Assembly: GCA_016207665.1 (NCBI GenBank)
Contig: JACQPG010000024.1
Location: forward strand, 15,900 to 79,899
Direction: 5' to 3'
DNA length: 64,000 nt
From: Elusimicrobiota bacterium
GTDB taxonomy: Bacteria; Elusimicrobiota; Elusimicrobia; UBA1565; UBA9628
Part shown: in pieces, positions 7,196 to 50,755 of the stretch
How positions within the stretch are numbered: position 1 is the stretch's first letter
Layout: every line of letters begins with the position of its first letter
Notes under the pieces: generated by a model
The model's input: the letters and a program-made list of their open reading frames with translations, nothing else
Databases searched by the model: none
Told to the model about the DNA's origin: nothing
Program-made: the position numbers and the translations under genes

Positions 7196-7198
7196 AAA

Positions 7199-13774: not shown

Positions 13775-13782
13775 AAGCTACC

Positions 13783-16279: not shown

Positions 16280-17427
16280 TATTTGAGATAAAAACTCATG
16301 GGCACCAAGTTGTAGTTAGCCAACATAGCGAATAACGGACGCAGACGCTCGAAGCGCTTCTTATACGTGGGAAATTCCGTCCATGATCTCGGCGGTTGCC
16401 GCATGATATGTTCATATTCTGCATCCGAAAGATCCAATCGTTTCTTGAAGTAAGTCACGAGCTCGGGTTCAATCTTTGGAGGAGTGTTGTACTCGGCCCA
16501 GGCAGCTTCGCGTGTCATTCTCCCCATTCTTGCCAATGCGGACAGGGTATTGTTCCTTAGGTCCGAGCCAAATTTTTGCGGCAGATAAATCCCATGGCAA
16601 AAGGCCGTCATTCTATTTTCTAAATGATGGCCGCCATAGTATTGCCAGCCAAAATTCCTTTCCAAGAATTCCCGGGCGGCCTCCTTGCTATAATCGAGAT
16701 ACCAGAATGGTCGAACTTTTTTTATCCTGGCGATGCTTGTCCACCACATGAATCGGCTGAAGGTCATCAGCGGATAGGTTTTCATGGGGCGACGGCCATG
16801 CTTCTGATGAATTGACTGGATGTATTTCCCGTCGAAGTAATTTCTGCCGAAGGGCGTGATGCCTTCTGTGACGAACGAATGACCCTCTAGTATGAATTTG
16901 ACGCCGTTTGTCCAGGCCGCGCGATACATGACCTCCGCCAGCGCCAAATCAGTCGCCGCCTCGATTTCGGGAACTCCTGATAAGAAAAAAGATCGGAAGA
17001 TGTCATCGGACTCTTTATTATCGACGACGTGGGTATAGAGATCGACATTCATGGCGCCAAGCACCTTGCGGATATTTTCCGTGGCGATCGCCGAATTCCA
17101 GGTATTGTCGTAATGGACAGCTAATGGCCGTAAACCCCATCGCCTTGCCAGGCACAACAGGTAAGATGAGTCAGTTCCGCCGCTGACTCCGATCACGCAG
17201 TCGTATCGTTTCCCTTTCCCGTCGGCCTTGATTTCTGAAACGATTCGTTGAAAGGTGGATTTGCCGATTTCGGTACCTGTCCCGTATTGTTGTTTGAGGC
17301 GATCCGTCTGATGGCAATAGTTGCAAACGCCCGATTGATCGAAGGTTATGGCGTCGACGCGTGCGTCATAAATGCAGCGGCTGCATACCTGGAGGGTCGC
17401 CTTATGCAGATCAGGGTCTAGCAGCAT
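16258..17427 (-). CDS. N-acetyl sugar amidotransferase (WbuX/WbpG family)
   Basis: CSRC...CNYC, YDCVIGVSGGTDSS, HYDNTWN, YGGHHLE. Confidence 0.9.
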   Translation of the reverse strand: MLLDPDLHKATLQVCSRCIYDARVDAITFDQSGVCNYCHQTDRLKQQYGTGTEIGKSTFQRIVSEIKADGKGKRYDCVIGVSGGTDSSYLLCLARRWGLRPLAVHYDNTWNSAIATENIRKVLGAMNVDLYTHVVDNKESDDIFRSFFLSGVPEIEAATDLALAEVMYRAAWTNGVKFILEGHSFVTEGITPFGRNYFDGKYIQSIHQKHGRRPMKTYPLMTFSRFMWWTSIARIKKVRPFWYLDYSKEAAREFLERNFGWQYYGGHHLENRMTAFCHGIYLPQKFGSDLRNNTLSALARMGRMTREAAWAEYNTPPKIEPELVTYFKKRLDLSDAEYEHIMRQPPRSWTEFPTYKKRFERLRPLFAMLANYNLVPMSFYLKYCFPAKA

Positions 17428-18400
17428 CTTCCTTCTTACCCAGGCTTGCTGAAAATGCGTTGTTATTGCCGGGCTTGTTCCGTTCGCGCCACCAGATAGA
17501 AGCGGGCATATCTATTCCGTTCATCCCAATATGGGTGATCTCCAAAACCGATTCGTTTCCGCATCCAACGAATATCTGGCCATCCATCGTTTTAATTTGT
17601 CCGCAAGGCGGAAACGGGAAATGTTTATGCGGAACGAGCTGGGACGACCAAATTGTAACCTTATCGGCTTGGTGGAACGTGAAGGCGCCAGGGTATGGCT
17701 TGGTCTGGGCGCGAATGAAATTGTAGATCTGGCAGGCGGGGCGCGACCAGTCGATGATTCCATCCTCTGGGCCGCGCTGTGGAAACAACCGCCGTCGACT
17801 TTCGTCTTGGGGTGTTAGCTGCGCAGAGCCGTTGGCCAGACGGGGTAATTGTTTTACGAGAAGCTCGATCCCTAGCGATTCTATTCGTTGGTAAAGGGTG
17901 GCGATGGTATCCTCTGGGAGGATATCTGCCGCCAGTTGTCCTACAACCGGCCCGCTGTCCACGCCATCAGCCAGCTGAAATAGAGTGATGCCTGTCTTGG
18001 TTTCGCCGTTGATCATAGCCCATACAAGCGGCGCCCCGCCACTGTAATCAGGAAGCAATGAGGAGTGGAGCCCATAGGCGGGCGCCATTTCCCGCCAGGG
18101 TCGTGGGACCATGTGGTACCACCCGGCTACGAGGAACATATCTGGCGCCCAGGAGCGAACGCGGTCCATCAGGTCTGGATCCTTCATGTTCCGACGGATT
18201 ATGGCGCATTCTATGTTATGCGAGTCGCAGTAGCTCTTGACGTCGGCAAATAGGACATTCGTGACGCCTTGCGGCCGATATGAGATTGAAAAATGGCGTG
18301 GGGCGGTGACGGCCCCCACGATTTCGCAGCAGGGCAAAGTAGTAATTGTTTCCAGGCAGCGCATTCCAAACGTGCTCGCGCCTATAAATACGATTCTCAT
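17411..18400 (-). CDS. sugar N-formyltransferase (Fmt-like)
   Basis: MRIVFIG, HSSLLPDYSGGAP, DSGP, RAQTKPYPGAF; ATG 18400 overlaps the asnB stop. Confidence 0.85.
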   Translation of the reverse strand: MRIVFIGASTFGMRCLETITTLPCCEIVGAVTAPRHFSISYRPQGVTNVLFADVKSYCDSHNIECAIIRRNMKDPDLMDRVRSWAPDMFLVAGWYHMVPRPWREMAPAYGLHSSLLPDYSGGAPLVWAMINGETKTGITLFQLADGVDSGPVVGQLAADILPEDTIATLYQRIESLGIELLVKQLPRLANGSAQLTPQDESRRRLFPQRGPEDGIIDWSRPACQIYNFIRAQTKPYPGAFTFHQADKVTIWSSQLVPHKHFPFPPCGQIKTMDGQIFVGCGNESVLEITHIGMNGIDMPASIWWRERNKPGNNNAFSASLGKKEDAARP

Positions 18401-36879: not shown

Positions 36880-36912
36880 AAAAAAAAGAGCCCCCGCGTT
36901 GAGCGGGGGCTC
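36880..36912 (-). terminator. intrinsic terminator of the S8 protease gene
   Basis: Perfect 10-bp stem GAGCCCCCGC/GCGGGGGCTC with a 5-nt loop, then a T-run on the minus strand. Confidence 0.85.
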
Positions 36913-36933
36913 CAGGATAAGCGTCGTTACGGC

Positions 36934-38172
36934 TTATTGCACGAGCTTGGCCGCGTCGATCATGCCCGCGCCTTGCTGGTTGGGCGTGGCGTTGGGCAGA
37001 GGTAAAGACGCCGCCTTCAGAGCCGCGCGAACCGCCGGCTCGCCGCGCAGTCTCTTGGCCGAGATCGCCAGGGCGGCCAGGCCCGAGACATGCGGCGTGG
37101 CCATGGAGGTGCCGGAAAGGCTTTGATAGCCCCCGCCCATATAGGTCGAAGGGACATCGACGCCCGGGGCGATGAAGTCGACCTCCGGGCCGCGGCTGGA
37201 GAACCAGGCCACCGCGTCTTGCGAGTCGGAAGCCGCGATGGCGATCGCGCCCGGGTAGCCCGCGGGAAAATTCACCGTATCCGAGTTCTCGTCACCCCAA
37301 CCGCCGGAGTTGCCGGCCGCGGCGATGAGAACCGTGCCTCCGGCCACCATGGCCTCGACCGCTTCCTTAAACGAGTCGTTGCCCTGGGAGGCGCCCAGAG
37401 ACATGCTGGCGATATCCATCTTATTCTCCCAAGCCCATTGCATGCCGGCGATCACGTCCGAGAAGGTGCCGGAGCCGCCCGAATCGAGCACCTTGACCCC
37501 GTAGATCGAGGCCTCGGGGGCGACGCCCACCACTCCCTCGGCGTTGTCAAGAGCCGCGATCGACCCTGCCACGTGCGTGCCATGGCCGTGGTCGTCCAGG
37601 AATTCCCCGTTCTTGCTGATCGCGTTCCAGCCGCCCTTGACGTTGGAGGCGAGATCCGGGTGCTTGAAGTCGACGCCGGTGTCGATCACCGCGATCTTGA
37701 CGCCCTTGCCGCGAGCGGCGGCCCAGGCCTTGGGGGCGTTGACCCGCGGGATGCCCCAAGGAAGGCTCTGCTCGGCGCGCCTAACCGGCGCCGAGGCCTT
37801 GAAGGGCGAGATCACGCTTTTGATGTCGGGCAGCGGTATGTCGGATATCCGCGCCGGCGCCGCGTTGATCCACTTGATGCGGGGGTCATCGTCGATTCTC
37901 ACCACCTCGGGGCGGCTGCGGAGGCGCGCCTGAAGCAGGACGACTTGTTGGGGAGCGCCCTCGATGACGACCGCATGGATCATCTCGAGAGTCCTGACGA
38001 CCTTGGCTCCGGCGCTCTCGGCGATGAGAACGCGGTCCTTGGCCGGCGTCTGCGCGGCGAATACGACGATCTTCCTGACGGGGGCTTGCTCGGCCTGCGT
38101 GTCGGCGCGCAAGCCGGCCGGTCCCGCCAAGCCCAGCGCCAAAAGCGCCAGGGCCGTCCTGATCTTGAGCAT
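36934..38172 (-). CDS. secreted subtilisin-like S8 serine protease with an I9-like prodomain
   Basis: Signal peptide; catalytic VIDTG, HGTHVAG and GTSMATPHV; AAAGN. Confidence 0.95.
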   Translation of the reverse strand: MLKIRTALALLALGLAGPAGLRADTQAEQAPVRKIVVFAAQTPAKDRVLIAESAGAKVVRTLEMIHAVVIEGAPQQVVLLQARLRSRPEVVRIDDDPRIKWINAAPARISDIPLPDIKSVISPFKASAPVRRAEQSLPWGIPRVNAPKAWAAARGKGVKIAVIDTGVDFKHPDLASNVKGGWNAISKNGEFLDDHGHGTHVAGSIAALDNAEGVVGVAPEASIYGVKVLDSGGSGTFSDVIAGMQWAWENKMDIASMSLGASQGNDSFKEAVEAMVAGGTVLIAAAGNSGGWGDENSDTVNFPAGYPGAIAIAASDSQDAVAWFSSRGPEVDFIAPGVDVPSTYMGGGYQSLSGTSMATPHVSGLAALAISAKRLRGEPAVRAALKAASLPLPNATPNQQGAGMIDAAKLVQ

Positions 38173-38230
38173 GGCCACCTCCTCTCCTCGGCCCCTGATG
38201 GCGGGCCGTGGCGAGGAGCTTAGCACATTT

Positions 38231-38292
38231 GGACCAAAAGGCCTATATTAATTTAGGTCCTTTGGGAATGGACGGATTAGGACTTTTCGGTT
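38231..38292. promoter_or_regulatory. three copies of the TAGGNCY-TTT-NGNNN motif upstream of the S8 protease
   Basis: rc TAGGCCTTTTGGTCC (38231-45), TAGGTCCTTTGGGAA (38254-68), TAGGACTTTTCGGTT (38278-92). Confidence 0.55.
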
Positions 38293-38965
38293 AACGGAAG
38301 AGGCCGAGGAATCGGTCCTCGTACTCCGCGAAGAGGCCGTATTCGCGGAGGACCCGGCCTAGCCGCTCTCGCGCGGAGGGGTCGTCGGCCGCGGCGGCGA
38401 AGAGCGACTCTATCTCCCGCTTGCGGCGATCGTCCTGGCGGGCGGCGGGATCGAAGAGGCCGCGCCGCTCGAGATCCCTCACATGGGTGGGGAAGGAGCG
38501 CGCCGATTGGTCGAGAGTGAACTTCATGAGGGCCAGGGACCAGGCCGAGTCCGGGCACCAGATCACGGCCTTGTTGCCGGCCTCCTCCGAGTCGAGCTCG
38601 GCCAGTATGCGTCGCGCCACGGATTGCGGGGATTCCGAGATGACGCGCGTGGCGAAGCCCTGATTCTTGAAGTTGTACTCCAGGGCCCGAAGCAGATCCC
38701 TATAGCTGCCGGTAAGCCACTGCGCGAACTCCTTGGCCTCATCCCCGAAACCCTCGAAGCGCTCGAAGAAGGACTCGGCCGTCAATATCTTGGGCTTCTC
38801 GGAAAGCACCTTGCCCTCGCGCAGGCGGGTCTTGTTCTTGAGGTCCTCCACGGGCGAGACCAGATGGTATTCGATATTGGTGGCGCCGAAGGTGGACAGC
38901 ACGCTCCGGGGCGTGCGCAATATCTCGGTCTGCCTGAGAAAGGACTGGATCAGCGAAGCATCCAT
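38291..38965 (-). CDS. hypothetical cytoplasmic protein
   Basis: Coherent globular sequence (LSTFGAT.IEYHLV, REG.V, FEGFG, LF.EYEDRF); ATG 6 nt after TGTTATAAT. Confidence 0.75.
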   Translation of the reverse strand: MDASLIQSFLRQTEILRTPRSVLSTFGATNIEYHLVSPVEDLKNKTRLREGKVLSEKPKILTAESFFERFEGFGDEAKEFAQWLTGSYRDLLRALEYNFKNQGFATRVISESPQSVARRILAELDSEEAGNKAVIWCPDSAWSLALMKFTLDQSARSFPTHVRDLERRGLFDPAARQDDRRKREIESLFAAAADDPSARERLGRVLREYGLFAEYEDRFLGLFR

Positions 38966-39046
38966 AATAAAATTATAACACGTCCAGCATAGAAGATTTT
39001 CATTGCCTTTCCGATCCGGGATTCGTAGAATCCGGCCTAGGTGATC

Positions 39047-39086
39047 TAGGACCTTGGACCTAGATATAGAATGGGACCTTTGGGTG
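39047..39086. promoter_or_regulatory. two motif copies flanking a TAGAAT -10 box
   Basis: TAGGACCTTGGACCTA (39047-62), TGGGACCTTTGGGTG (39072-86). Confidence 0.5.
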
Positions 39087-39095
39087 GAGGGGCCG

Positions 39096-40010
39096 ATGAG
39101 TAATAGCCTGGTGGTGAAGCTGTTGTTAGCCTCTATGCTTGGCCTGGGCGTCATTGAACTGGCGGGCGCGCAGCGCTTAGTGGATTTCGACCAGGGCGTG
39201 GACGCCTCAACCCTATTAAAGGAAGCGACCGAGGGCACGATGGACGAGCAGACGCTTCCCCAAGCTCGCGTCGCCTGGCGGCAACGTTACGAGCGCGACT
39301 GCGTCAAGATCGCCTTCGCCCCCGATTCTCCGCCGGTCTCGCAGCCGGTGCGTCTCCATAGCCGGGAGTGGATCGAGGACTGCCGCTGGGTCCCGGGCGG
39401 GCGCAACCAGCCGGGACGCTGGGAATGCTGGGAGCGACCGGGCATGGGTTATTCGGAGACGGTGCAGATTACTCTCCGGGACCGCAAGCCGCTGTTGCCT
39501 TGGGAGCACGACGGCTTCCTCGCCTGCCTCGAGGGCCCTTGGACGGACTGGCAGGCGCTCGAGACGGCCTATGAGTACAAACAGGCCTCGAGCCGCGGAG
39601 AGGGCTCGATCGTGCTGGCGCCCGGGCGCAAGCTCGCGATGAAGCCCGATCCCACCGGCATCAGGGTCGAGTCGTTCTCCCGCGCGCTCAAGCTCGCGCT
39701 CAGCGACCGCTGGTCCTCCTATTACGCGGGCGAAGTCACGCGTTTGACGCTCAAGCTCAAGCGCCAGGTCAAGCCTTGGCCCGATCCCGTGCTGCTCGAA
39801 AAGGAGCTCGATCTCGAGCCGGCCCCCTCCTATGAGATCGACTTTCTCGCCTATCGGGGGCAATTCTCCGAGCCGCTCAAGCCGGGGGAGAAGTATTATG
39901 TCGAGATCGAGTTCTCCCGGCGAGGGCGAGTTTCCAAGGAACAGAAGATCGAGATCGACGAGACGCCGGCCGTCCCCTATCAGCCTGTCTCGGTCGCGGC
40001 CGCCCGATAA
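39096..40010 (+). CDS. hypothetical secreted beta-rich protein
   Basis: GGAGG SD, signal peptide (LAGA|Q), four Cys. Confidence 0.75.
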   Translation: MSNSLVVKLLLASMLGLGVIELAGAQRLVDFDQGVDASTLLKEATEGTMDEQTLPQARVAWRQRYERDCVKIAFAPDSPPVSQPVRLHSREWIEDCRWVPGGRNQPGRWECWERPGMGYSETVQITLRDRKPLLPWEHDGFLACLEGPWTDWQALETAYEYKQASSRGEGSIVLAPGRKLAMKPDPTGIRVESFSRALKLALSDRWSSYYAGEVTRLTLKLKRQVKPWPDPVLLEKELDLEPAPSYEIDFLAYRGQFSEPLKPGEKYYVEIEFSRRGRVSKEQKIEIDETPAVPYQPVSVAAAR

Positions 40011-40016
40011 GATCAG

Positions 40017-40098
40017 GGCCCTTCGCTCCTAGCCCGGGCATTTCGAGCTCGTCGAGGCCTAGGTCCCCTGGGCCGCTGAGCTTTAGGTCCTTAGCCAA
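40017..40098. promoter_or_regulatory. three motif copies upstream of the LonC / M50-Clp operon
   Basis: rc TAGGAGCGAAGGGCC (40017-31), TAGGTCCCCTGGGCC (40060-74), TAGGTCCTTAGCCAA (40084-98). Confidence 0.55.
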
Positions 40099-40157
40099 GA
40101 GCCTGAAGTACCAATAGACCCATCACTGATCGGCGTCCTTTGGACATAATTCGATAC

Positions 40158-43100
40158 ATGCGACAAGTCAAAGGCTTTCTCGGGCGTTCTTTCTCCGTTG
40201 TTCTGGCGTTGGCGATGGCGTTTCCCGGCGGTCTGAACGCGGGCTCATCGCGCAACCGCTCTCGTTCCAAGGATTTTTCGGTCTCGCTCGGGCGCGTGAG
40301 GCCCCAGCGTATCCCGATCGCGCGGCCCGCGACGCCAGCGCCGATTCCGGCGCCCATCTCGGCCGCTGAGCTTCCGGGCGCGGCGATCAGGCGGCATCCC
40401 GTGATCGAGCTGATGGATCAGCTCCAGAGCGCGGGCGTTTCGCTTTCAGACGACGCCTCCGTGGATCCGGAGCGATTGGAGTCCGCGGCGCTTCCCGAGT
40501 CGGCGCGTCAGAGCCTGGCCTCGATCGCCCGGGCCGTGGCCGCGCGGCGCGGCGGCTTGTCCGCCCAGGGCGCCTTGGGAAGGGCTTTCGACAGGGCTCG
40601 GGCCGAGGGCGACTCGGGAGTGGTTTCGGGTTCGGGGGGCGCGACCCTTATGGCCGGGCCCGCCGAGGCGGGCGCGTCCTTGCTGCGCTGGAGCCCGGGC
40701 GGGGGCGAGGTTCCGGAGAGCACTCGCGGCGTGGAGAGAGCCGGCGAGCCCATCGTGGGGCAGGATTTGGCGCTCAAGCATTTGCGCGACGCCTTGCGCA
40801 TGTCCGGCAAGAGCTATAACGTCTATATCGCCGGTCCCGAGGATTCAGGCCGCCAATCCGCGGCCGAGCTCATTCTCAGGCGGGAGATCGCCCCGTCGCT
40901 TCCGACGCCTCCGGACCTGGTCCAGGTCACGAATTTCCAGGATAAGGAATATCCCCTGGTGTTGGAGCTGCCGGCGGGCGCAGGGCAGAGGCTGAGGGCG
41001 GGGGTCGCGCAATTCCTGATCAACTTCCAGCTCCATCTGGCCGAACGCATGTCGTCGCCCGAGATCAAGGAGAAGCATCGCGAGGCCGCGGCCAAGATAG
41101 CGAAGGAGAAAGAGCAGGTGATGGCCGCCTTCGACGCGGAGGTCGAGCAAGTCGAGCTGGGCAAGTTCGGGATCGAGATATACGGGGAGCCGAACGGCAA
41201 GGGAATCGAGATCAAGGCGGCTCTTAAACTGGGGAAAGGCGGCCGGGTGATCGCCGAAAAGGAGCTGGACGAGCTGATCAAGGAGGGAAAATTCAGCCGG
41301 CAGGAGTGGGAAGAGGCTCATGAACAGTTGCCTGAAAAATCCGCTCCTTTCATGGATAAATTCGAGGATGCCATAGCCCATCATCGCCATGCGGACGCCA
41401 GGCTTGCCGCCCAGATCGAGATGATCAATCGCCAGGCCGCCGCGAGCCTGGCCGCGGGGCTCGGCAACGCCATGCTTTCCGCGATGTTCGCGCCCGATGA
41501 GAACGATCCGCAGCTACAGCGATGGAAGGCGCAGGTGGCGCAGCGCGAGGCTGATTTCCGGAAGGGATTATCCTCGGTGATGATAGGGCCCTATGGCGTG
41601 GATTACATGATACACGAGGGGGGCTTTTTCCTGCTCTTGACCCGTTATGAAGGCGGGGAACGCGTTCCCGTGCAACAAGAGGAGCTGGACTCGCTCAGGG
41701 CCTCGGGCGCGCTGACGCAAGACCATATCGACGAGTGGCTCCGGCTCGCGCAGGAGTGGTCGCAGAAGTTCTTGGAGATGGCGCGGCTCAATAACCAGGA
41801 GTACGCGGCCATGGGTTCTCGGAAGGACCCGACTGAACAGGATAAGAAGCTGATCGGCTGGGCCCAGCTTATGGCGGGCTACGCCGCCAGCCATTACAAG
41901 GAATTCCTGCCGGCCTATCTCAAGGATGACGGGGAAGCGTCGCAGGCTCAGGGCGGCGTCTCCGAGGCCTTCCAAGTCAACGTCATGGTCGACAACTCCC
42001 AGACCCAGGGGGCTCCGGTGATATTCGAGCCCAATCCTACCTTGGAGAACCTGTTCGGCTCGGCGGACGCGGAGTCCAAGAGCATGATCGTCGGCGGCAA
42101 GATGATGAAATTGGGCGGAGCCGCCGGTCCCAAGCTCAATCCGGGAGCGGTTCATAGGGCCAATGGCGGATTCTTGATCCTGAAAGACCTGGACGTGCTT
42201 CGCCAACCCGGCGCCTGGGAAGCTCTGCAGCGCATGATCGAGACCGGAAAGGCGGAGATCATCGAAGGGGGGCTGCTGGGCTTGAGGCTTCAAAGCCGCG
42301 TCCACAAGACTCCGGTCAACGTGCGCGTGGTGCTGATCGGCAATTATCTGCGTCATAGGCTGCTTACCGAGCATGACGAGAATTTCCGCCGGAATTTCAG
42401 GTCCTTGGCGCAGTTCGAGCCTTCCCTGGCTCTCAACGCCGAGACCCTCAAGGGCTTCGTGCAATTCCTGAAGATCATCATCGAGAAAAGCGCGGGCGAG
42501 ATCTTGGAGATGAACCGGCAGGCCATCGTCGCCCTCATCCAATACGCGGCCAGGCTGGTGCCCAGCCATGTGGAGATATCGGCCCGCCTGGGCCTCATCG
42601 ACAGCGTGGCGCGGGAGGCCACCTTCTTCGCCCGCAAGGAGGGAGCGGAGCAGCTCGACGGCCGGCATGTGGCGATGGCGCTGGAGCGCCGCAAGGAAAG
42701 CCACGGCCTGTTCGAGCGCCGGACCCTGGCCCGCTACCGGGACGGCGAGGAGTTGGTGCGCGTCGAGGGCGCCGAGGTGGGCGAGATGAACGCCCTGGTG
42801 GTGTATGAGATGGCGGACAGCTTCGGGGCTCCCAAGCGCATGAGCGTCTACGCGGTGGCGGCGCCTCCGGGATCGCCCCTGCTCATCTCGACGGATCGCG
42901 CCGGCAAGCTCACGGGAAAGAGCTTCGACAAGGCCCTGGCCGTGGTGGAGAACTTCATCAAGCGCCAGTTCGGGCGCAAGCTGCTCATCCCGGCGCAACT
43001 GCTTGTGTCTTTCGAGCAGAGCCATGGGGTCGACGGGGACTCGGCCACCGGGGCGACGATCGCGACCGCGCTTTCCAGCCTTTCCGGCGTGCCCCTCAAG

Positions 43101-43451
43101 CAGAACATCGCGATGACCGGCTCGGCCGATCAGGCCGGGAATATACTGCCCATCGGAGGCGCCAACGAGAAGATCGAAGGCTTCTTGAACGTGGCGAGCC
43201 TCTTGGTCAGCCAGGCGCATGAGCAGGGATTGCATGGAGTAATCTTGCCTCAGGCCAACTTGGCGGATCTCATGCTCGATCCCAAGGTCATCGCCGCCAT
43301 CGACGGCCGCCGCTTCAAGATCTATCCGGTCAGGCACATCAGCGAGGTCATGCCCATTTTGACCGGCGAGAGCTACCAGTCGATCATCGAGAAGGCCGAG
43401 CGCTATATCGACGATCTGCGCCAGGGGCTTAAAGGGCTCGCCTCCAAGTAA
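40158..43451 (+). CDS. LonC/AAA_32-type Lon-like serine protease with a signal-peptide-like N-terminus
   Basis: IVGQ, YNVYIAGP..SGR, NF, APVIFEPNPT..NLFG, GAVHRANGGFLIL, FEQS.GVDGDSA (Ser 43041), IGG.NEKIEGF (Lys 43170, 43 codons later). Confidence 0.9.
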   Translation: MRQVKGFLGRSFSVVLALAMAFPGGLNAGSSRNRSRSKDFSVSLGRVRPQRIPIARPATPAPIPAPISAAELPGAAIRRHPVIELMDQLQSAGVSLSDDASVDPERLESAALPESARQSLASIARAVAARRGGLSAQGALGRAFDRARAEGDSGVVSGSGGATLMAGPAEAGASLLRWSPGGGEVPESTRGVERAGEPIVGQDLALKHLRDALRMSGKSYNVYIAGPEDSGRQSAAELILRREIAPSLPTPPDLVQVTNFQDKEYPLVLELPAGAGQRLRAGVAQFLINFQLHLAERMSSPEIKEKHREAAAKIAKEKEQVMAAFDAEVEQVELGKFGIEIYGEPNGKGIEIKAALKLGKGGRVIAEKELDELIKEGKFSRQEWEEAHEQLPEKSAPFMDKFEDAIAHHRHADARLAAQIEMINRQAAASLAAGLGNAMLSAMFAPDENDPQLQRWKAQVAQREADFRKGLSSVMIGPYGVDYMIHEGGFFLLLTRYEGGERVPVQQEELDSLRASGALTQDHIDEWLRLAQEWSQKFLEMARLNNQEYAAMGSRKDPTEQDKKLIGWAQLMAGYAASHYKEFLPAYLKDDGEASQAQGGVSEAFQVNVMVDNSQTQGAPVIFEPNPTLENLFGSADAESKSMIVGGKMMKLGGAAGPKLNPGAVHRANGGFLILKDLDVLRQPGAWEALQRMIETGKAEIIEGGLLGLRLQSRVHKTPVNVRVVLIGNYLRHRLLTEHDENFRRNFRSLAQFEPSLALNAETLKGFVQFLKIIIEKSAGEILEMNRQAIVALIQYAARLVPSHVEISARLGLIDSVAREATFFARKEGAEQLDGRHVAMALERRKESHGLFERRTLARYRDGEELVRVEGAEVGEMNALVVYEMADSFGAPKRMSVYAVAAPPGSPLLISTDRAGKLTGKSFDKALAVVENFIKRQFGRKLLIPAQLLVSFEQSHGVDGDSATGATIATALSSLSGVPLKQNIAMTGSADQAGNILPIGGANEKIEGFLNVASLLVSQAHEQGLHGVILPQANLADLMLDPKVIAAIDGRRFKIYPVRHISEVMPILTGESYQSIIEKAERYIDDLRQGLKGLASK

Positions 43452-46400
43452 ATGAGCCCTTCCGGCAAGTTCTTGCGCGGCCTGCTTTGCGCCGCCCTGC
43501 TCATAGCCTCTCCGGGAAGCCTTCCTTACCAGGCCTTGGCGGCCTCCCGTCCCGAGGGCCGGCCCGTGTCGGCCGCGCAGCTGCGCCTGGCCATGCGGGC
43601 CGTGACGCGAGTCGGGAAAGGCCCCGCGGATTCATCTCGAGCGAGCCGGGCTCAGCGGCGCCTGGCGGGGCGGCTATCCTCATTGGACCTGGACTCGGCC
43701 CAGGGCCGGGCGCTGGCGGAGAGATTCGCGCAACGCGTCGAGGGCCTGGGCCCCGAGGCCTCGGAATCGGAGCTGGCGCAAGCCCTGATCGCGGCCGCGG
43801 AGCAAAGCTCGGAGCCGCTGCAGCCCGGATTTGGCGGGTTCGAGGGCGTCGGGCGGCATATCGCCGCCGTGATCCGCTCCTGGCGTAAGGCGGTTCCGGC
43901 TGAAATCGAGGCCGCCAACTCCGCCGGCGTATCCGCGGCCCGCTCGCCGCAGGCCTTGGCCCGGCCCTCTTTTTCCCCTCGGGAGCCGGGCGTCATCGAG
44001 CCGGTGGCCGTGGAGCGGCATTCTCTCGGAACCCATGCCCAGCCGCGAGCTTTCTGGTCCGGGCGCTTGGGCCGGGCCGCGCTGTGGGGCGCGGCCTTGG
44101 CCTTGGCGGGCGCGGCGATCGCGCATCTGGGCTTGATCCCGGCCGCCGCGCTTTCCGCGGTGTTGATCGGCTCGGTGTTGTTGCACGAAGTCGAGCATCT
44201 TCGCGTCTTGCGCAAGCTGGGAGACCCTACCGCCGAGAAACACGGTCACGGCAGTCTCAATCCGTTGAAGCATATCGATCCTTGGAAAACCCTGGCCCTG
44301 CCGTTGCTGACGCTTCTCGGCAGCTTGCTGTGGCTGCCCGCGCCGGTGATCTTCGGCCAGGCCGCGCCCGTGCGCGTGGACTTCAACAAATTGCCCGATC
44401 CCAAGAGAGACGCCGCGCGCGTGGCTTGGGCCGGGCCGCGCACGAATCTATTGCTTTCGGCGGCGGCTTGGGCGGCGTACCTGGCCTTGCCGGGCCTGGG
44501 CCTTATCGCCGCGGGCGGAAGCGCCGCCTGGGTGTTGTGGCAAGCGGCCGCGATCAACGCCTCGCTGGCCTTGTTCAACCTGCTTCCACTGCCGAATCTG
44601 GATGGAGGCAAGATACTGGTGCGCTATCTGCCGCAGCGGGTCTATCGGCTTTGGACCAGCAATCCGGATCTGCCCGCTTCGTATCAAAGCACCTATCAAA
44701 GGCTCTATGAGGGCCCGGCTTATTTGTTGAGCAAGCTCGGCATCGCCAGCCAAGGCCGGGTCAATCGTCTGGCCTGGGGCGCCAGCGTCTTGAGCCTGGC
44801 GCTTTTTTCCGTGGGACTTTCCGCTTGGCTGGGCGCTCCCTTGGCGCTTTTCCTGCTGGTTTGCGCTTACGACTATTATTGCATCCGGGAAAAGATACAG
44901 AACGAGGAGGCGGTCAAGGCCATCATCGGCATATTCCAGGGCTTTTCCCGGGCCATGGCCCAGGCCGCGGAGCGGGACGAGGGCGTCGAATCCGAGATCA
45001 ATTCAGAGGAAGTCGAGCATGTCTTGAAAAACGCCTTCGAGGACACCCTCGACAAGATCATGGACTCGGAGGGCTTCGAGGCCCTCGACGAGGCCGGACG
45101 ATGGGAGCGTTTCGAGTCGGCCTATCGCGAGGCCGCGGTCGCGGCCCTGCGCGCCCACGGCATGAGCGAGGACGGCCCCGAGGCCATCCGGCGCTTCCTC
45201 GATCGTGCCGATCTCAAGTCCTATTTCCAGGCCCTGAGGGACTGGATGACGCGCTACGAGGCCTGGGAGAAGTGGCGCAGTCCCAAACGCAGGCAACGCC
45301 GGCGCGATGCCGAGGGCAAGTCCTCCCAGGCCCAAGGAGGAGCGGCCACCGCGATGGGCTTGGCGGTTTTGGGGGCTTTCGGCGTGGGCTTGGCGGGCAT
45401 CGATCTCGGCGCCGTGGCCCTGCTTCCCGGAACGGTCGAGCCAAACGCGCCCGCCGCGCGCCCGAGCTTCGTCCAGGCGCTCAACGACGCGAATCTGAAG
45501 TTCGACGACAAGCAGAAGGCGTTCCTGACCCTTCACCTGACTGAGCTGAAGCTCAAGAAGGTGGCGCCCGTGATCGGCCGGGTCGAGGAGATCAAGCGTC
45601 TGATCAAGAGCGCGCGGGGCCCGCGCGGGGTGATCAACAACGTGGTGGCCTGGGGCAAGACCGGCGTGGGGAAGACGGCGCTCTTCGAGGGCCTGGCCCA
45701 GGCGCAGGCCTTTTCGGAGACACAGCCCGAGGGAGGCACGTTCAAGCTCGCGAGCTTGGAGGGCCGCTATCTGCTCGAGCTCGATCTCTCGCGCTTGATG
45801 TTGGCCGATGACCCGGCGATGGCGCTGGCCATGATATTCCAGTATCTCGCCCGTTTCAATGATCCGGACCCCAGGAACGGCAGCAAGGTGATATTGATCA
45901 TCGACGAGATCCATAAGCTCTTCAAGCACCCCCGCGGCGAGCTCATGGCCGAGCTGCTCAAGAGGCATTTGAGGGAGGGAGACCTCGCGGTCTTCGCCGC
46001 CACCACCGAGGCCGAATACAGGAAATACATCGAGCCTGACGAGGCCTTCAGCCGGAGGCTGGTGCCGCTCGAGCTCAAGCCGGCCACCCCGGAGGAGACC
46101 CTGCTTTATCTGGAGGGAGGCCAGGAATACTATGAGCGGCTATTCGGCGTGACCATCGCGCCCGAGGCTCTTAGGGCTTTGGCGGAACTATCGCGCTTCG
46201 ATCGCAGCGTGGAGCTGCCGGAGCGGGCCTTCAAATATCTGCGCCTGGCCTCCTCCGAGGCTAATTTTGACAGCCGGCGGGACCGCTACTCGCTCGATAT
46301 TCGGGACTTGATCGGGCGGCTGCGCTATGCGATGCAGCGGCTCTCGGAGCAGCTTTCAGGATCGGAACTGGTCACGGACAAGCTGAAGAAGGACGAGCCA

Positions 46401-49400
46401 GGGGCGATCTCCCTTTATAACCTCGCCATAGACCTCAGCCAGGAACTGATCGACCTTTATCGCAAGCGCGACGGGGTGCCGACGGAGGGAACTCCGGTGG
46501 TGGATTCCGAGATGGTGAAGGAGGAGATATCCCGGGAAACCGGCATCAAATCAGGGCTTCTGGTCTCGGGCGAGGAGGATCTGGAGCGCTATCTCAAGAT
46601 GGAGGAGATCGTCGGCCGAAGGGTGATAGGACAGGAGGAGCCCATCCATATCATCGCCGAGGCCGTGCGCCAGAACAAGGCCGGGCTTTCGGATCCGAAT
46701 CGACCCATGGGAGTGTTCTATCTCACCGGCCCCACGGGCTCGGGAAAGACCTTGCTCGCCAAGACCCTCGCCTGGTTCTTGTTCGGCGATCCCGAGGCCA
46801 TGGTGCGCGTCGACATGTCCGAGTACCAGGAGGGCCACTCCGTGTCGCGCGGCATAGGAGCTCCTCCCGGCTATGTCGGCCATGAGCAAGGCGGACAGTG
46901 GACGGAGAAGGTGAGGCGGCGGCCCTACAGCGTGGTCTTGTTCGACGAGATCGAGAAGGCGCACCCCAATGTCTGGTTGTTGCTGCTTCCCCTGCTGGCG
47001 GACGGCCGCATGACCGACGGCCAAGGGCGAACCGTGGATTTCAAGAATACGCTGATTCTTATGACCTCCAATCTGGGCATGCAGGCGGTGAATGTCGAGC
47101 CCTATGTCAAGGCTTATCAGGCGATGCGGACGGATATCCAGGCGGCCGAGGCCGCGGGGGATGCCCATGCCCTGCAGGCGGCGCGGTCGCGCCTCGAGCA
47201 ATTGATCGCCAATTTGTCGGCCGATACGAAGAAGACGACCATGGAGGTCACCGGCAAGTATTTCAAGGAGGTCTATCCTCCCGAGTTCCAGGGGCGGCTG
47301 CATGCCCCTCCCATCGTGTTCAACCGCATCACGCCGGCCATGGCCCGGGAGATCGTGGAGCTGAACCTCAAGCAGCTCCGCGAGGTGCTGGCTTTCGCCG
47401 GCCACGAATTCGATTGGGATCCAGGTCTTGTGGCTCATATCGTCGACGAGGGCTATTCGATCGAATTGGGAGCCCGGCCCTTGCAGAACGCCATCGATCG
47501 GCTCGTGACCCGGCCGATAGCCAAGGAGATACTCAAGGCAGCGGTCGCCAGCGGCAATAAGATACGGCCCAGCGAGATCAAGGTCGGCTTCGAGCAGGGC
47601 CGGGTGGGTTTCGAGATCAAGGCCCTCAAGCCCCGGCCTTTGGCCAAGAAGAAGTCCCGGGAAGCCGCGGCTCGCGAGCTGTTCATGCGCGTGCTGCGCC
47701 ATTCCTTGGCCGCGGCGGTGCAGCCGATCGCGGCGCCGGGGCTTTCGGAGATAGATGCCTGGGCTCGGGCGGCCCTAGGTCAGGACCCGGTCCGCGCTCA
47801 GGAGCCGGGCTCGGGAGCTCCGGCGGCGGAGCCGCCTGGCGACGGCGCGCTTTTCAGCGCCAAGCCCGGCGGCATGAGGGCCATGGGAGATTCCCAGATA
47901 ACCGTTCTCGCCTCTCATAACAGGCCGCAGGGCAAGGACGAGGGGCTGCGGCGCCTGCGCGAGGAGCTTTCAGCCGCCCTGGAGCGGGAGGGATATCCGG
48001 AGTCCGTTCGGGAGCTGATACTGCGCACGGTGGAGCATCCGGACGATCCCTATGTGGGCTGGCTCAAGCTCATGGTGGAGCGCGCCAAGGAAAGGCAAAC
48101 GGGAGAGAGTCCCATTAAGATCAGCTACGAGGTGGACGGGGATTCGGTACGCCTGCTGGTGCATCGCGAAGGGGAACTCGATGCTCGGGAGACGGCCGTG
48201 TTCGAGACCCATTTCAGAGGCCCCCCGCCCGAGAGCCCGTCCGTCTCGCGCGAAAGGGCCGAGGCCGCCAATGTGGCGGGCGAGGACGGGCGCAGGCATT
48301 ATTTCGATCTCTATCGCGCTCTTAACCGGATGGGAGCGAATTGGGGCTATTTCTCCGGGATATTGGCCCGGGGCGAGAGCGGAGTGGATTATTGGATCGA
48401 GATACCCAAGGTCCCGCCGCAACCGGCCGCCGCACCCGCTGGCGAGGCTGCGGCGCGGGGGCAGCCTGATACGGGCAAGATCAAGGAGCACGCTCGGGAA
48501 CGCGACATCGGCGCCTATGGTTTCGATCCGGCCTGGGCCGGCATCGTTTTGACTTTGGGCCGGCGCGAGTACCGGGGTTGGGACGGATACCTTTCCGAGC
48601 TCAAGAGCCGCTTCCATCTGCGCGAGACGCTTTCCATCCATGGAGGTCATGACACGAAATTCGGCTTGGTCCTCGAACGGCGGCCTTCAGGCGATGAGGC
48701 TCTTGAGGAGGAGCTGGCGCGGCTGGCGATAGAGCTTTCCAGGGAGGAGGCGGCCGTGTCGATTGCCGTCGACAGGCGAGTGGCCAAGAGGATCGCGGCG
48801 CCCCAGCCCCCCGCTTTGTTGGCGAAGGTGGATCTGTTGCCGGACGAGCTGCGGCCGGCGGCCGAGGCTCGGCGCACGATCTTGATCGAGCTGGCGCATC
48901 AGGGTTTCCCGACGCAATATTTCCGCGACAATCTTTTCGTCAGCATAAACCGCGGCGTGGGCCTGATGCTGGTGCGTGATTCCAGGACTGGGTCCCGGTT
49001 GGAGGCAGAGTTCAGGGCGGATGACCCGGAGGCCGCCGCCCGTGCCGTGATCGCGTTGGCCGATTATGGCGCCCTCGATGCGATCCGGGTGCATCCGGAA
49101 GTGAAACGGAGGATAGCCGAGCTGCTGAGAGACCCGTCCGCCCCGGCTCGCGAAAGGCCCGATCGTTCGCCCCGGGAGCAGTTGAAAGCCATGGCCCTGG
49201 CCATTTTAAGGCAGGGAAATCAGCGCAGCCCGTCCGTGTTGATCGCGGCGGGGGATCTCTTCGCGTCGCTGGCCTCTTCCGATGACCTGAACTTGGCCTT
49301 GGATTGGATCGGACATAACGACTCCCGCCTCCAGCATTTCCTCATCGGCGCCGGCGCGGCCGTCGTGGCCGCGCTGGGCCAGGGGGAAGACAAGCTGGAG

Positions 49401-50318
49401 GTCCTCAGCCAGGCCATGGAGTCGCTGTCGCGGCGCGGAGGCGATGAGTTCAAGCCGATTAAGTCGAGGCTGGCCGACGCCTACGCGGAGATCGCGGCGC
49501 GAAGCCTGGATCCGGGCGAGATAAGGCGGCGCTTCGAAGAGGAATCGGGCAAGAGAGCCGTGGAGGGCCGCAACGAGCCCTTGATCTCGGCGCTTTATAC
49601 GGCCCTAGCTCGACGCGCCGGTGCCGAGGCTCAACCGGTTCTCCTGGAGAATTGGGAGCAGCCGCGAGGGCGAGAGCTATACCAATATCTCAAGAGGGCC
49701 GAGCCCGCGCTGTTGCGGGAGATCTACGAGGATTGGAAAAGGATCAGGGCTCGGCCCGATGGAGCCGCGCGACAGCTCGTTCTTTACGCCATCGCCGACC
49801 ATGGCGACCGCGACGATCTCGAGGCTCTCAAGGGCATCGCCGAAAGCGGTTGGGAGGGAGCCCTGGAGCACCAGGGCAAGCTCATGGCGGCCGAGGCTTA
49901 CGCCGCCATGGTCAAGCGACTTGGGGCTTTCGCGTCGGTCAGGAACGAGAGCAGGACCTGGATTTCCGGCGGTTTGGGCGATTCGATCAACTTCAGCCGC
50001 ATGGTGAGCGCGGTCGAGGTGATCGGGGAGGCGGGCTCGGCCAGGGATATGCCTCTGCTCGAGCGCCTGATGGAGCTCAACCCGGCCCAGGTCAATGCCG
50101 CGCATGAGATGACGCAACAGTTGGCCGCGCGAGCTTGGGCGCGAAGGGCGATCGCCCTCGGGCTGATGGGAGGTTTGATGAGCGCCGAGCCCGGGCCGGA
50201 TCACGTCGATCAGCCGTCCAGGATCGCGAAGATGCTGACTGACACCAACCCCATAGTCAATACGGCCGCTCTAGAGGCCTTGAGGCTTCATTTCCAGGCC
50301 AGGCCCGGAGGCTCATGA
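43452..50318 (+). CDS. 2288-aa fusion: leader peptide + M50 site-2 protease + two-ring Clp/Hsp100 AAA+ ATPase + degenerate HATPase-like domain + helical C-terminus
   Basis: HEVEH (44184) and FNLLPLPNLDGG; GKTGVGKT/IIDEIH; GPTGSGKT, DMSEY, GAPPGYVG, LFDEIEKAHP, GARPL. Confidence 0.9.
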   Translation: MSPSGKFLRGLLCAALLIASPGSLPYQALAASRPEGRPVSAAQLRLAMRAVTRVGKGPADSSRASRAQRRLAGRLSSLDLDSAQGRALAERFAQRVEGLGPEASESELAQALIAAAEQSSEPLQPGFGGFEGVGRHIAAVIRSWRKAVPAEIEAANSAGVSAARSPQALARPSFSPREPGVIEPVAVERHSLGTHAQPRAFWSGRLGRAALWGAALALAGAAIAHLGLIPAAALSAVLIGSVLLHEVEHLRVLRKLGDPTAEKHGHGSLNPLKHIDPWKTLALPLLTLLGSLLWLPAPVIFGQAAPVRVDFNKLPDPKRDAARVAWAGPRTNLLLSAAAWAAYLALPGLGLIAAGGSAAWVLWQAAAINASLALFNLLPLPNLDGGKILVRYLPQRVYRLWTSNPDLPASYQSTYQRLYEGPAYLLSKLGIASQGRVNRLAWGASVLSLALFSVGLSAWLGAPLALFLLVCAYDYYCIREKIQNEEAVKAIIGIFQGFSRAMAQAAERDEGVESEINSEEVEHVLKNAFEDTLDKIMDSEGFEALDEAGRWERFESAYREAAVAALRAHGMSEDGPEAIRRFLDRADLKSYFQALRDWMTRYEAWEKWRSPKRRQRRRDAEGKSSQAQGGAATAMGLAVLGAFGVGLAGIDLGAVALLPGTVEPNAPAARPSFVQALNDANLKFDDKQKAFLTLHLTELKLKKVAPVIGRVEEIKRLIKSARGPRGVINNVVAWGKTGVGKTALFEGLAQAQAFSETQPEGGTFKLASLEGRYLLELDLSRLMLADDPAMALAMIFQYLARFNDPDPRNGSKVILIIDEIHKLFKHPRGELMAELLKRHLREGDLAVFAATTEAEYRKYIEPDEAFSRRLVPLELKPATPEETLLYLEGGQEYYERLFGVTIAPEALRALAELSRFDRSVELPERAFKYLRLASSEANFDSRRDRYSLDIRDLIGRLRYAMQRLSEQLSGSELVTDKLKKDEPGAISLYNLAIDLSQELIDLYRKRDGVPTEGTPVVDSEMVKEEISRETGIKSGLLVSGEEDLERYLKMEEIVGRRVIGQEEPIHIIAEAVRQNKAGLSDPNRPMGVFYLTGPTGSGKTLLAKTLAWFLFGDPEAMVRVDMSEYQEGHSVSRGIGAPPGYVGHEQGGQWTEKVRRRPYSVVLFDEIEKAHPNVWLLLLPLLADGRMTDGQGRTVDFKNTLILMTSNLGMQAVNVEPYVKAYQAMRTDIQAAEAAGDAHALQAARSRLEQLIANLSADTKKTTMEVTGKYFKEVYPPEFQGRLHAPPIVFNRITPAMAREIVELNLKQLREVLAFAGHEFDWDPGLVAHIVDEGYSIELGARPLQNAIDRLVTRPIAKEILKAAVASGNKIRPSEIKVGFEQGRVGFEIKALKPRPLAKKKSREAAARELFMRVLRHSLAAAVQPIAAPGLSEIDAWARAALGQDPVRAQEPGSGAPAAEPPGDGALFSAKPGGMRAMGDSQITVLASHNRPQGKDEGLRRLREELSAALEREGYPESVRELILRTVEHPDDPYVGWLKLMVERAKERQTGESPIKISYEVDGDSVRLLVHREGELDARETAVFETHFRGPPPESPSVSRERAEAANVAGEDGRRHYFDLYRALNRMGANWGYFSGILARGESGVDYWIEIPKVPPQPAAAPAGEAAARGQPDTGKIKEHARERDIGAYGFDPAWAGIVLTLGRREYRGWDGYLSELKSRFHLRETLSIHGGHDTKFGLVLERRPSGDEALEEELARLAIELSREEAAVSIAVDRRVAKRIAAPQPPALLAKVDLLPDELRPAAEARRTILIELAHQGFPTQYFRDNLFVSINRGVGLMLVRDSRTGSRLEAEFRADDPEAAARAVIALADYGALDAIRVHPEVKRRIAELLRDPSAPARERPDRSPREQLKAMALAILRQGNQRSPSVLIAAGDLFASLASSDDLNLALDWIGHNDSRLQHFLIGAGAAVVAALGQGEDKLEVLSQAMESLSRRGGDEFKPIKSRLADAYAEIAARSLDPGEIRRRFEEESGKRAVEGRNEPLISALYTALARRAGAEAQPVLLENWEQPRGRELYQYLKRAEPALLREIYEDWKRIRARPDGAARQLVLYAIADHGDRDDLEALKGIAESGWEGALEHQGKLMAAEAYAAMVKRLGAFASVRNESRTWISGGLGDSINFSRMVSAVEVIGEAGSARDMPLLERLMELNPAQVNAAHEMTQQLAARAWARRAIALGLMGGLMSAEPGPDHVDQPSRIAKMLTDTNPIVNTAALEALRLHFQARPGGS

Positions 50319-50755
50319 AGAAAGGCATCATCGTTTCGGCGTTGGCCGTCTGCGCGGCGGCGCCGGGCTTCTCCTGCCCTGATCTGGCGGGCCGCTGGAG
50401 GCATGAAGGACAGGATAGGGACGAGATCTCCATCCAGCAGCCCTCCTGCCGGCGCCTCGTCATAGGCTCGGACTGGCTCTCGCGCATGTATACCGGGGTC
50501 GAGTTAGCCGTGGAAGAGCCGGGTGCCGGGGAGGATTACCGGACGCTTCCGCCCGGCTGGAGAGAGAACCTGGAAGGCCAGAAGAGGGAATGCGAGCGCG
50601 CTCGCCGGGCCTTCTGGCGCGGCGAGCGGCTGATCGTGCGCAATTGCTTTTGCAATGAGTGCGGCGACGTATCGCTTTGGAGAGAGGGAGATCGGCTCGC
50701 CGTCGAGTTGAGTTTCGCGGGCGGTTCTCCCAGCTATTATCGCCTGTCACCCTGA
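50315..50755 (+). CDS. small secreted Cys-rich hypothetical protein
   Basis: Signal peptide, CPDLAG.W, C.C..C; ATGA overlap with the giant gene. Confidence 0.65.
   Translation: MKKGIIVSALAVCAAAPGFSCPDLAGRWRHEGQDRDEISIQQPSCRRLVIGSDWLSRMYTGVELAVEEPGAGEDYRTLPPGWRENLEGQKRECERARRAFWRGERLIVRNCFCNECGDVSLWREGDRLAVELSFAGGSPSYYRLSP

Follow-up and report, generated by a model that had tools for sequence, protein, structure and literature searches.

A putative site-2 protease–Hsp100 fusion and a leader-bearing LonC-type protease in a lineage-specific gene neighbourhood of a groundwater Elusimicrobiota genome

Six consecutive genes occupy 36.9–50.8 kb of a 64,000-nucleotide stretch of an Elusimicrobiota genome (assembly GCA_016207665.1, contig JACQPG010000024.1, positions 15,900 to 79,899; hereafter the window), and five of them encode products with signal-peptide-like leaders. 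Among these products are relatives of Lon and of the Hsp100 unfoldases, machines that act in the cytoplasm at the expense of ATP, and a sequence-only reading of the DNA had proposed an exported proteolysis cluster. Do the six genes constitute one exported system, and how would its ATPases be powered in a compartment that lacks ATP? Judging from the corresponding loci of relatives, we conclude that the supposed cluster is a chance, lineage-specific neighbourhood and not one conserved exported system. What the window probably holds is a juxtaposition, particular to this lineage, of four kinds of envelope proteins, including a fusion of a site-2 protease (S2P) with an Hsp100 motor and a LonC-type protease that has acquired a leader.

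Gene order and leaders in the window and its relatives

The genes read, together with two sites beside them that resemble transcription signals, are as follows.

36887..36913, minus strand: terminator-like hairpin right after the S8 stop, with an 11-pair stem (9 GC pairs) followed by a T-run; a consensus match only
36934..38172, minus strand: S8 subtilase, 412 aa, from ATG 38172 (alternative GTG 38226), with leader, pro-region and catalytic domain
38291..38965, minus strand: hyp315, probably 224 aa, from ATG 38965, without a leader and in the same direction as S8
39003..39031, plus strand: promoter-like site 5' of hyp318, agreeing at 9 of 12 consensus positions; a consensus match only
39096..40010, plus strand: hyp318, 304 aa, leader-bearing, from ATG 39096
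40158..43451, plus strand: long LonC-type Lon-like protease, 1097 aa, from ATG 40158; TTG 40140 is also open (1103-aa frame)
43452..50318, plus strand: giant protein, 2288 aa, with an M50 protease and a double AAA+ Clp module in one reading frame
50315..50755, plus strand: lipo146, putative lipoprotein of 146 aa, its start overlapping the stop of the giant gene

Residues 1–700 of the giant protein were searched against 401 genomes of the phylum. Matches of the fusion type (approximately residues 200–650, in frames of 650–5000 aa) occur at about 36 places, which fall in families f1, f2, f8 and f11; in the family of the window organism (f1), 30 of 47 genomes have some match. Among the matches listed, the others correspond to residues ~236–397 and are M50 frames of about 215 aa that stand alone. 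We fetched 12–20 kb around 20 long forms and compared these loci with the window proteins by tblastn; the M50, AAA+ and C-terminal parts are present at all 20, and S8, hyp315, hyp318, the LonC-like protein, lipo146 and the neighbouring ahcY at none. An all-against-all comparison of open reading frames (ORFs) at the giant loci added only generic receiver-domain and unrelated matches. The long LonC is found in 74 of the 101 genomes of the order, and the giant protein, S8, hyp318 and lipo146 are absent from each of the 16 long LonC loci fetched; in one genome (G327) the long LonC lies 0.5 and 1.6 Mb from two giant genes on one contig. At three loci of a single genus (L077, L079 and L081) ahcY directly follows LonC in convergent orientation with neither giant nor lipo146 between them, and the simplest reading of this arrangement suggests that giant and lipo146 were inserted between LonC and ahcY in the lineage of the window. 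Conservation in relatives was a check that the sequence-only reading had itself set beforehand; the arrangement is preserved at none of the 20 giant loci and at none of the 16 LonC loci. For the striking 'exported quality-control cluster' as a conserved system, the outcome is thus negative.

Leaders were scored with a crude rule (a K/R n-region, an uncharged hydrophobic window of 11, then small-x-small), which is not a trained predictor. S8, hyp318, the LonC-like protein, the giant protein and lipo146 satisfy it, as the sequence-only reading had noticed, and hyp315 and the neighbouring ahcY fail it. All 21 giant frames pass as well, that of the window included, as do all 11 complete long LonC frames (again counting the window; a twelfth, cut by a contig end, was left out) against 0 of 21 ordinary LonC proteins. 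This conservation argues that the true starts do not lie downstream, an error to which the leaders had been thought open. By eye, many of the giant leaders show A-x-A with Q, A or E as the next residue, as is usual at sites of signal peptidase I, and in the long LonC frames of relatives the leader is followed by an A/P/S-rich linker. Five leaders among six adjacent genes are by themselves weak evidence of a system; if about a quarter of all genes bore leaders (a figure assumed and not computed), such runs would be expected several times per genome by chance.

Three apparently leaderless proteins were also considered. P0014 was rejected as such, as its locus (L061) has a leader upstream, and P0011, which begins inside a helix of relatives such as L049, was treated as having a mis-called start; P0006 is presumed to be another such case.

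S8 and hyp315 are encoded on the strand opposite to hyp318, LonC-like, giant and lipo146, and a strong terminator-like hairpin closes their unit, so that the six genes make up two divergent units and not one. Direct reading of the junctions confirms both of the tight couplings described earlier, namely AAG TAA ATG at 43449–43454 between the LonC-like and giant genes, and an ATGA overlap (50315–50318) between giant and lipo146. Both junctions are bridged without differences by contigs from three runs of one study, one of which may itself be the source of the window, and by these contigs an assembly chimera at the LonC/giant junction is ruled out. The upstream motif said to be common to S8 and the last three genes dwindles to GGAGG-type ribosome-binding sites, which precede S8 (ATG 38172), hyp318 and lipo146; no such site stands before the LonC-like ATG or the giant ATG, and we find no specific motif.

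As to content, Pfam supports the inventory of S8, S16 Lon, M50 and Hsp100 domains, with the corrections that the Lon is of the LonC type and that M50 and Hsp100 belong to one 2288-aa gene. Peptidase_S8 (PF00082) scores 202 bits in the ORF 36934–38226 (minus strand), and its NCBIfam matches are all under the equivalog cut-offs; the motifs DTGV, HGTHVAG and GTSMATPHV, which we take to be those of the Asp/His/Ser triad, are present in the translation. S8 would then be an ordinary secreted subtilase in a divergent unit of its own with hyp315. Hyp315 has a sub-threshold HAD match only (21.4 bits against a Pfam cut-off of 27) and none in NCBIfam. Hyp318 and lipo146, which match no family in Pfam (E ≤ 1) or NCBIfam, would be two small leader-bearing members of the envelope set; in lipo146 a Cys after APGFS was taken by eye as a lipobox.

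The M50–Hsp100 protein and its membrane topology

The giant protein can be divided as follows, with confidence values from AlphaFold2 (AF2) models given as the predicted local distance difference test (pLDDT); alignment A2 contains the family members.

43452..43547, plus strand: residues 1–32, signal-peptide-like leader (..LLIASPGSLPYQALAAS), of the same type in 20 of 20 relatives and with a recurring SPG..YQALA-like c-region
43548..44066, plus strand: residues 33–205, variable low-complexity N-domain, poorly conserved in A2; pLDDT mostly <50 for 122–207
44067..44885, plus strand: residues 206–478, M50 site-2 protease transmembrane core, with HEVEH at 245–249 and NLLPLPNLDG at 376–385
44886..45335, plus strand: residues 479–628, family-specific helical domain after the motif CxYDYxC; pLDDT >90 and conserved in A2
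45336..45437, plus strand: residues 629–662, G/A-rich hydrophobic element, probably a non-crossing or twice-crossing hairpin; pLDDT <50
45549..47564, plus strand: residues ~700–1371, Hsp100/Clp double AAA+ module, with D1 Walker A GKTGVGKT (735), D2 Walker A GPTGSGKT (1093), then D2-small
47565..49166, plus strand: residues 1372–1905, alpha/beta domain (~1481–1656) and poorly predicted linkers; pLDDT 74–93 in model m980c371aa525 (model residues 101–280) and <50 (288–467)
49167..50318, plus strand: residues 1906–2288, HEAT/ARM-like alpha-solenoid; pLDDT mostly >85

Several lines of evidence identify the N-terminal part as a site-2 protease. Peptidase_M50 (PF02163) is matched at 41.8 bits (cut-off 27.2), with only residues 361–395 covered, and AAA, AAA_lid_9, AAA_2 (185 bits) and ClpB_D2-small are matched in the same ORF. 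H245, E246, H249, N376, P379, D384 and G385 are invariant in the 20 sequences of A2, and NLLPLPNLDG, the motif of the third zinc ligand, aligns with its counterpart in RseP orthologues. The N-terminal AF2 model has a mean pLDDT of 68.7, reaching 75–95 in the M50 core, and VIA-align of the core gives Z scores of 10.1 with Aquifex aeolicus RseP (9j82_A, 171 residues), 9.9 with Escherichia coli RseP (7w6x), 9.0 with MjS2P (3b4r_A) and 8.4 with SpoIVFB (8vjl_A), all above the unrelated entries; in the superposition, model residues 229–461 span RseP residues 1–427. Foldseek returned nothing for the N-terminal model at E ≤ 0.001, the best match being MjS2P (3b4r_A) with a probability of 0.99 and an E value of 0.15. 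The N-domain ahead of the core has no usable family in Pfam (E ≤ 1) or NCBIfam and in A2 is a variable A/P/S-rich spacer. Residues 440–700 gave 26 matches in 1.84 billion representative proteins, mostly inside long proteins, and by this measure the family is small.

The end of the last core helix carries the motif C-x-Y-D-Y-x-C (window positions 44862–44882, residues 471–477), which AF2 draws as a low-confidence beta-hairpin. C471, Y475 and C477 are invariant in the 20 sequences and Y473 and D474 nearly so; the motif may bind a metal or form a disulfide.

The sidedness of the protein was approached through the positive-inside rule and comparative reasoning. Across the 20 sequences the median number of lysines plus arginines is 5 in the loop 250–316, 6.5 in 388–433 and 3 in 479–498, and it is 0 in three turns on the opposite face (225–229, 346–356 and 459–463). 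RseP and SpoIVFB have their active sites near the cytoplasmic face; the charge pattern matches their orientation, and everything past the core would thus lie on the cytoplasmic side. The hydrophobic element ahead of the AAA+ module, compared in 18 relatives, consists of two stretches in 12, usually with P, G or H between them; it is a merged 43-aa segment in L045 and a single stretch in L050, and is missing from L048, L051, L052 and L053. Being paired in most relatives and absent from four, it cannot be what moves the ATPase across the membrane. The distribution of charge and the dispensability of this element together point to a cytoplasmic ATPase, and the intact ATPase motifs described below fit a compartment that contains ATP. 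An inverted M50 core with one crossing before the AAA+ module was rejected, since it would put the K/R medians of 5, 6.5 and 3 outside and none inside; the pre-AAA+ element is, moreover, missing in four relatives.

The AAA+ module is apparently active. Its Walker B motifs read ILIIDEIH in D1 and VVLFDEIE in D2, both with the DE pair, and the D2 pore-loop region GAPPGYVG is present (GAPPGYVGHEQGG). Relative to a second Hsp100-type protein of the same genome, encoded on contig C47, D2 has an insertion of about 30 residues; by eye no IGF/IGL tripeptide was seen in this insertion, for which no dedicated test was run. Pfam finds no Clp_N (E ≤ 0.01) and no M41 match in the giant protein. ClpB, ClpV, ClpG, ClpK and ClpA are the top NCBIfam names, all far under their equivalog cut-offs, and the best of them, ClpB TIGR03346, scores 434.6 bits against a cut-off of 1232.1. 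Behind this module, the C-terminal 917 aa have no usable family in Pfam (E ≤ 1), NCBIfam or ESM Atlas. Foldseek with the whole C-terminal model places the solenoid closest to PP2A-A, the proteasome subunit Rpn2 and importins (E 3e-3 to 5e-2), a similarity of fold class only.

The protein on contig C47 (L088:4200-8177, minus strand; 1325 aa) also has a leader. It consists of a signal-peptide-like leader, about 130 aa, a G/A-rich hydrophobic pair, about 500 aa and a canonical double AAA+ module with canonical pore loops; its N-extension of about 700 aa was matched, weakly, in 1 of 60 other genomes of the order. It raises the same puzzle of leader and topology as the giant protein. Among the giant homologues themselves, those of genus g5 (L048–L055) contain in the N-domain, at A2 columns ~170–260, a repeated GPRWV followed by K-rich stretches, which are absent from the window protein. 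A further locus, L056 (G286:C27:54090-74089), has a 5022-aa open frame (3262–18328) with the same kind of leader, and with extra hydrophobic segments, a DEAD-like P-loop module and a second HExxH upstream of its M50–Clp part; it is too divergent to inform the topology of the giant protein.

We propose that the giant protein is a polytopic inner-membrane protein whose N-terminal part would be a canonical site-2 (M50) intramembrane zinc protease, and in which, past the last transmembrane helix, a helical domain on the cytoplasmic side would lead to the hydrophobic hairpin, a cytoplasmic double AAA+ module, the alpha/beta domain and the solenoid. Like those of other Hsp100 proteins, the AAA+ rings would form hexamers below the membrane and gather six M50 cores. 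Its substrates would be transmembrane or membrane-associated proteins, cut by the M50 site at or near the cytoplasmic leaflet, and the motor would use ATP to pull or unfold the substrates that this site cuts or has just cut, a logic like that of FtsH. The solenoid and the alpha/beta domain could provide docking surfaces, and the N-domain may gate access from the periplasm in place of the PDZ domains of RseP. The envelope-spanning extract-and-degrade machine envisaged by the sequence-only reading comes close to such a protein; for the cluster as a system it fails for lack of synteny.

Comparison with known systems shows how the parts are combined. With RseP, SpoIVFB and MjS2P the giant protein shares HExxH and NxxPxxxLDG, the Pfam M50 match, the core fold and the charge pattern of the loops. 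SpoIVFB ends in a CBS domain, and the giant protein similarly has a regulatory module behind its last helix, but it differs from the site-2 proteases in that neither PDZ nor CBS was found, in the leader and variable N-domain before the core, and in the addition of about 1800 residues behind it (the helical domain, double AAA+ and HEAT-like solenoid). With class 1 Hsp100/Clp proteins (ClpB, ClpA/C, ClpV and ClpG/K) it has in common the two AAA+ modules, Walker A and B, the D2 pore loop and D2-small, and it departs from them in the absence of Clp_N, the missing KYRG motif of D1, the D2 insertion and the S2P membrane anchor. What it has in common with FtsH is its logic, in which one chain combines a membrane anchor that has an extracytoplasmic N-part with a zinc metalloprotease and an AAA+ motor in the cytoplasm, yet the protein is not a member of that family; it has no M41 domain, its protease is intramembrane and N-terminal to the motor, and in place of one classic AAA module the motor has the double ring of the Clp type.

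If this proposal is correct, the giant protein would join in one chain what in known bacteria is the work of separate proteins, namely S2P intramembrane cleavage and the ATP-driven removal of fragments, the latter due to ClpXP or FtsH, and would offer a natural single-chain model for the cooperation of an unfoldase with an intramembrane protease. A bolder version is possible but doubtful: the giant protein may be the first of a new class of membrane-integrated ATP-dependent protease, an S2P driven by an Hsp100 double ring with a HEAT docking arm and a convergent counterpart of FtsH that cuts in the bilayer and extracts the pieces, and LonC, redirected to the periplasm in this lineage, would work there as a protease or chaperone that needs no energy. 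We found no paper on an M50–Hsp100 fusion or a leader-bearing LonC in the open-access literature searched, and the source names of the matches label both families only as 'AAA family ATPase' or 'ClpC'.

A long LonC-type protease

The ORF 40140–43451 (plus strand) matches AAA_32, LonB_AAA-LID (45.7 bits; cut-off 22.4), LonC_helical (25.3; 24) and Lon_C (44.6; 21.1) in Pfam, and from the N-terminus its product has a leader, an N-extension of about 190 aa, an AAA-like module that is degenerate and holds a helical insertion, and an S16 domain.

43029..43352, plus strand: S16 (Lon_C) proteolytic domain in its Pfam-matched extent, residues 964–1071 of the 1103-aa ORF, with DGDSA and GGANEK conserved

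Close relatives have 1098–1146 aa and ordinary LonC proteins about 800–835 aa, the long forms being distinguished in alignment A1 by the ~190-aa N-extension and an extra insertion of about 110 aa. The Ser-Lys dyad (S962/K1005 in P0013 numbering) is invariant in the 9 sequences of A1. The Walker A position reads GPEDSGRQS, the long forms having Arg in place of the Lys, and the Walker B position reads GGFLILKDLD, without the acidic (DE) pair. The insertion after the catalytic Lys (ASLLVSQAHEQGLHG in the window) keeps GLxG, lacks Cys and has 3 extra residues where ordinary LonC has C-REKGLT-G; it reads ...SQAHEQGLHG, and the Cys of CX3GLX(G/E) is thus not conserved.

PMC3391209 describes MtaLonC and TTC1975 as being without ATPase activity, and gives for MtaLonC a Walker A-like GPPSLGKHE and a 'Walker B' GYLILDA without the catalytic Glu; PMC13069640 refers to LonC as a dual chaperone-protease that lacks ATPase activity. 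The window protein shares with these LonC proteins its Pfam architecture, the degenerate Walker motifs and the Ser-Lys dyad, and differs in its length (about 300 residues more), leader, N-extension and insertion and in the Lys to Arg change. Its motifs mark it as an ATPase-dead LonC type that would need no ATP.

The presence of leaders in 11 of 11 long LonC frames and in 0 of 21 ordinary ones makes export to the periplasm plausible. The long LonC represents a subfamily, common in the order, that has kept the dyad, has lost the ATPase motifs, as characterised LonC proteins have, and would have gained a cleavable-looking signal peptide and linker. Either free in the periplasm or tethered to the inner membrane on its outer face, it could serve as a protease or chaperone that works without ATP, and it would do so independently of the giant protein. 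A precedent is Bacillus subtilis YlbL (DdcP), whose S16 domain acts on the extracytoplasmic side and has no ATPase; it has a PDZ domain and an N-terminal anchor and no AAA-like module. With a signal-peptide LonC of the proposed kind, proteolysis of the Lon type would take place in the periplasm too, with no energy source, and the retention of an ATPase-dead Lon would be accounted for. The ATP paradox of the sequence-only reading dissolves if the LonC is ATPase-dead, as its motifs indicate, and the Hsp100 part lies on the cytoplasmic side of a polytopic membrane protein.

At 7 of the 16 LonC loci (L073, L074, L077, L078, L079, L081 and L083) a leader-bearing protein of about 185–350 aa is encoded directly upstream of LonC, and a TrmL-like methyltransferase lies farther upstream in 9 of 16. 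The small upstream protein was tried as a diverged hyp318, lipo146 or hyp315, and rejected at an hhalign probability below 1%.

Alternative explanations and genome setting

A number of observations sit uneasily with a chance juxtaposition of a cytoplasmic-facing S2P–Hsp100 protein and an exported LonC. The sidedness of the giant protein was derived from the positive-inside rule and comparison alone, and its residues 461–478 ('TM6') have a pLDDT of about 58 and are drawn by AF2 as a beta-hairpin. D1 lacks the KYRG pore-loop tyrosine motif, where the C47 paralogue has GTKYRGQFEERL, which makes threading through D1 uncertain. Ahead of the HExxH helix, the helix 206–224 has a K/R-rich N-flank (median 3), and AF2 draws it as the antiparallel partner of the HExxH helix with a pLDDT of 49–64; if the leader and this helix both crossed the membrane, the M50 core would be inverted, which the charge pattern opposes. 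We lean towards placing helix 206–224 on the periplasmic face, giving an RseP-like N-out core and a periplasmic N-domain; the less favoured solution is that the leader leaves the N-domain unexported, with a SpoIVFB-like N-in core. The LonC-like protein of the window has four net positive charges just past the hydrophobic core of its leader (SRNRSRSK), a feature absent from its relatives, and positive charges after the hydrophobic core can hinder Sec export. Finally, the TAA–ATG and ATGA couplings argue for co-expression of LonC-like, giant and lipo146 in this organism, where a local functional link may exist.

This last point leads to the proposal that hyp318, LonC-like, giant and lipo146 form a working operon, in which a periplasmic LonC and the small leader proteins feed or regulate the S2P–Hsp100 protein, in the manner of site-1 and site-2 cleavage followed by ATP-dependent removal of the fragments. 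The four genes share a strand downstream of the promoter-like site at 39003–39031 with no terminator-like site of note between them, both close junctions are bridged by contigs of three runs, all four products bear leaders, and in the RseP paradigm a periplasmic site-1 protease (DegS), an S2P and cytoplasmic ClpXP are similarly coupled. However, the adjacency is seen in 0 of 36 related loci, relatives of hyp318 or lipo146 were detected beside neither gene elsewhere, and the LonC–ahcY order of three relatives suggests a recent insertion; gene neighbourhood alone is weak evidence of shared function, and we regard such an operon as unlikely. Far less probable still is that the whole set, Lon and Hsp100 ATPase included, is exported to the periplasm or delivered into another cell that contains ATP. 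Conserved leaders on five of the six genes speak for this idea, and the N-terminal parity problem of the giant protein leaves its topology not fully settled; the RseP-like transmembrane core rules out soluble cargo, though, and does not fit the delivery into another cell that had been suggested for the cluster. The charge pattern and the variable pre-AAA+ element also place the post-core part in the cytoplasm, the Lon is of an ATPase-dead type with no need of ATP, and among 10 ORFs scanned in the flanks (29–37 kb and 52–59 kb) there are no secretion-system genes.

The parity problem would be solved if the leaders of the giant and C47 proteins were N-terminal membrane anchors with the next domain cytoplasmic, the giant protein then being a SpoIVFB-like six-helix S2P with both ends inside. 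The K/R-rich flank of helix 206–224 suits a first helix that runs from inside to outside, and the alignments with MjS2P and SpoIVFB begin at model residue 212 of the giant protein. The C47 protein has an R-rich flank ahead of its hydrophobic pair, and its residues past the leader are strongly positive. But the giant leaders carry more positive charge in the n-region than is found in the stretch behind the leader (median 3 versus 1.5), their hydrophobic core is short, a small-x-small site is present in every frame and is in many of the A-x-A form noted above, and the N-domain is the variable spacer already described; these features speak against the anchor, which we consider unlikely to be correct. 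We therefore retain, as the probable reading, the lineage-specific juxtaposition of envelope proteins, with an S2P–Hsp100 fusion whose motor would face the cytoplasm and a LonC whose leader would direct it to the periplasm.

The window is part of contig C154 of a genome that is 88% complete in 161 contigs; its DNA recurs in groundwater metagenome runs, relatives in the databases bear the labels Elusimicrobia or Elusimicrobiota, and the organism is represented by a groundwater Elusimicrobiota metagenome-assembled genome. The search for separate housekeeping genes that had been recommended was positive: a canonical LonA-type Lon is encoded on contig C20, three further AAA_2 Clp-type genes are found on C77, C47 and C13, and an M41 search of the genome, which did not match the giant locus, found two FtsH genes on C65 and C129. 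The cluster genes are thus extra copies. The genes that flank the region are ordinary (a receiver domain, MauE/DoxX, ChaN, YaeQ, an aminotransferase and an amidohydrolase), and also include a TolB-like PD40 protein and a lipid A acyltransferase, which we take to reflect a diderm envelope. Positions 1–28000 of the window have a GC content of about 52%, compared with about 63% in the remainder, and contain genes for glycosyltransferases, a polysaccharide flippase-type protein, DegT aminotransferases, asparagine synthase and a CapD-like dehydratase; this part resembles a surface-polysaccharide cluster, possibly an acquired one.

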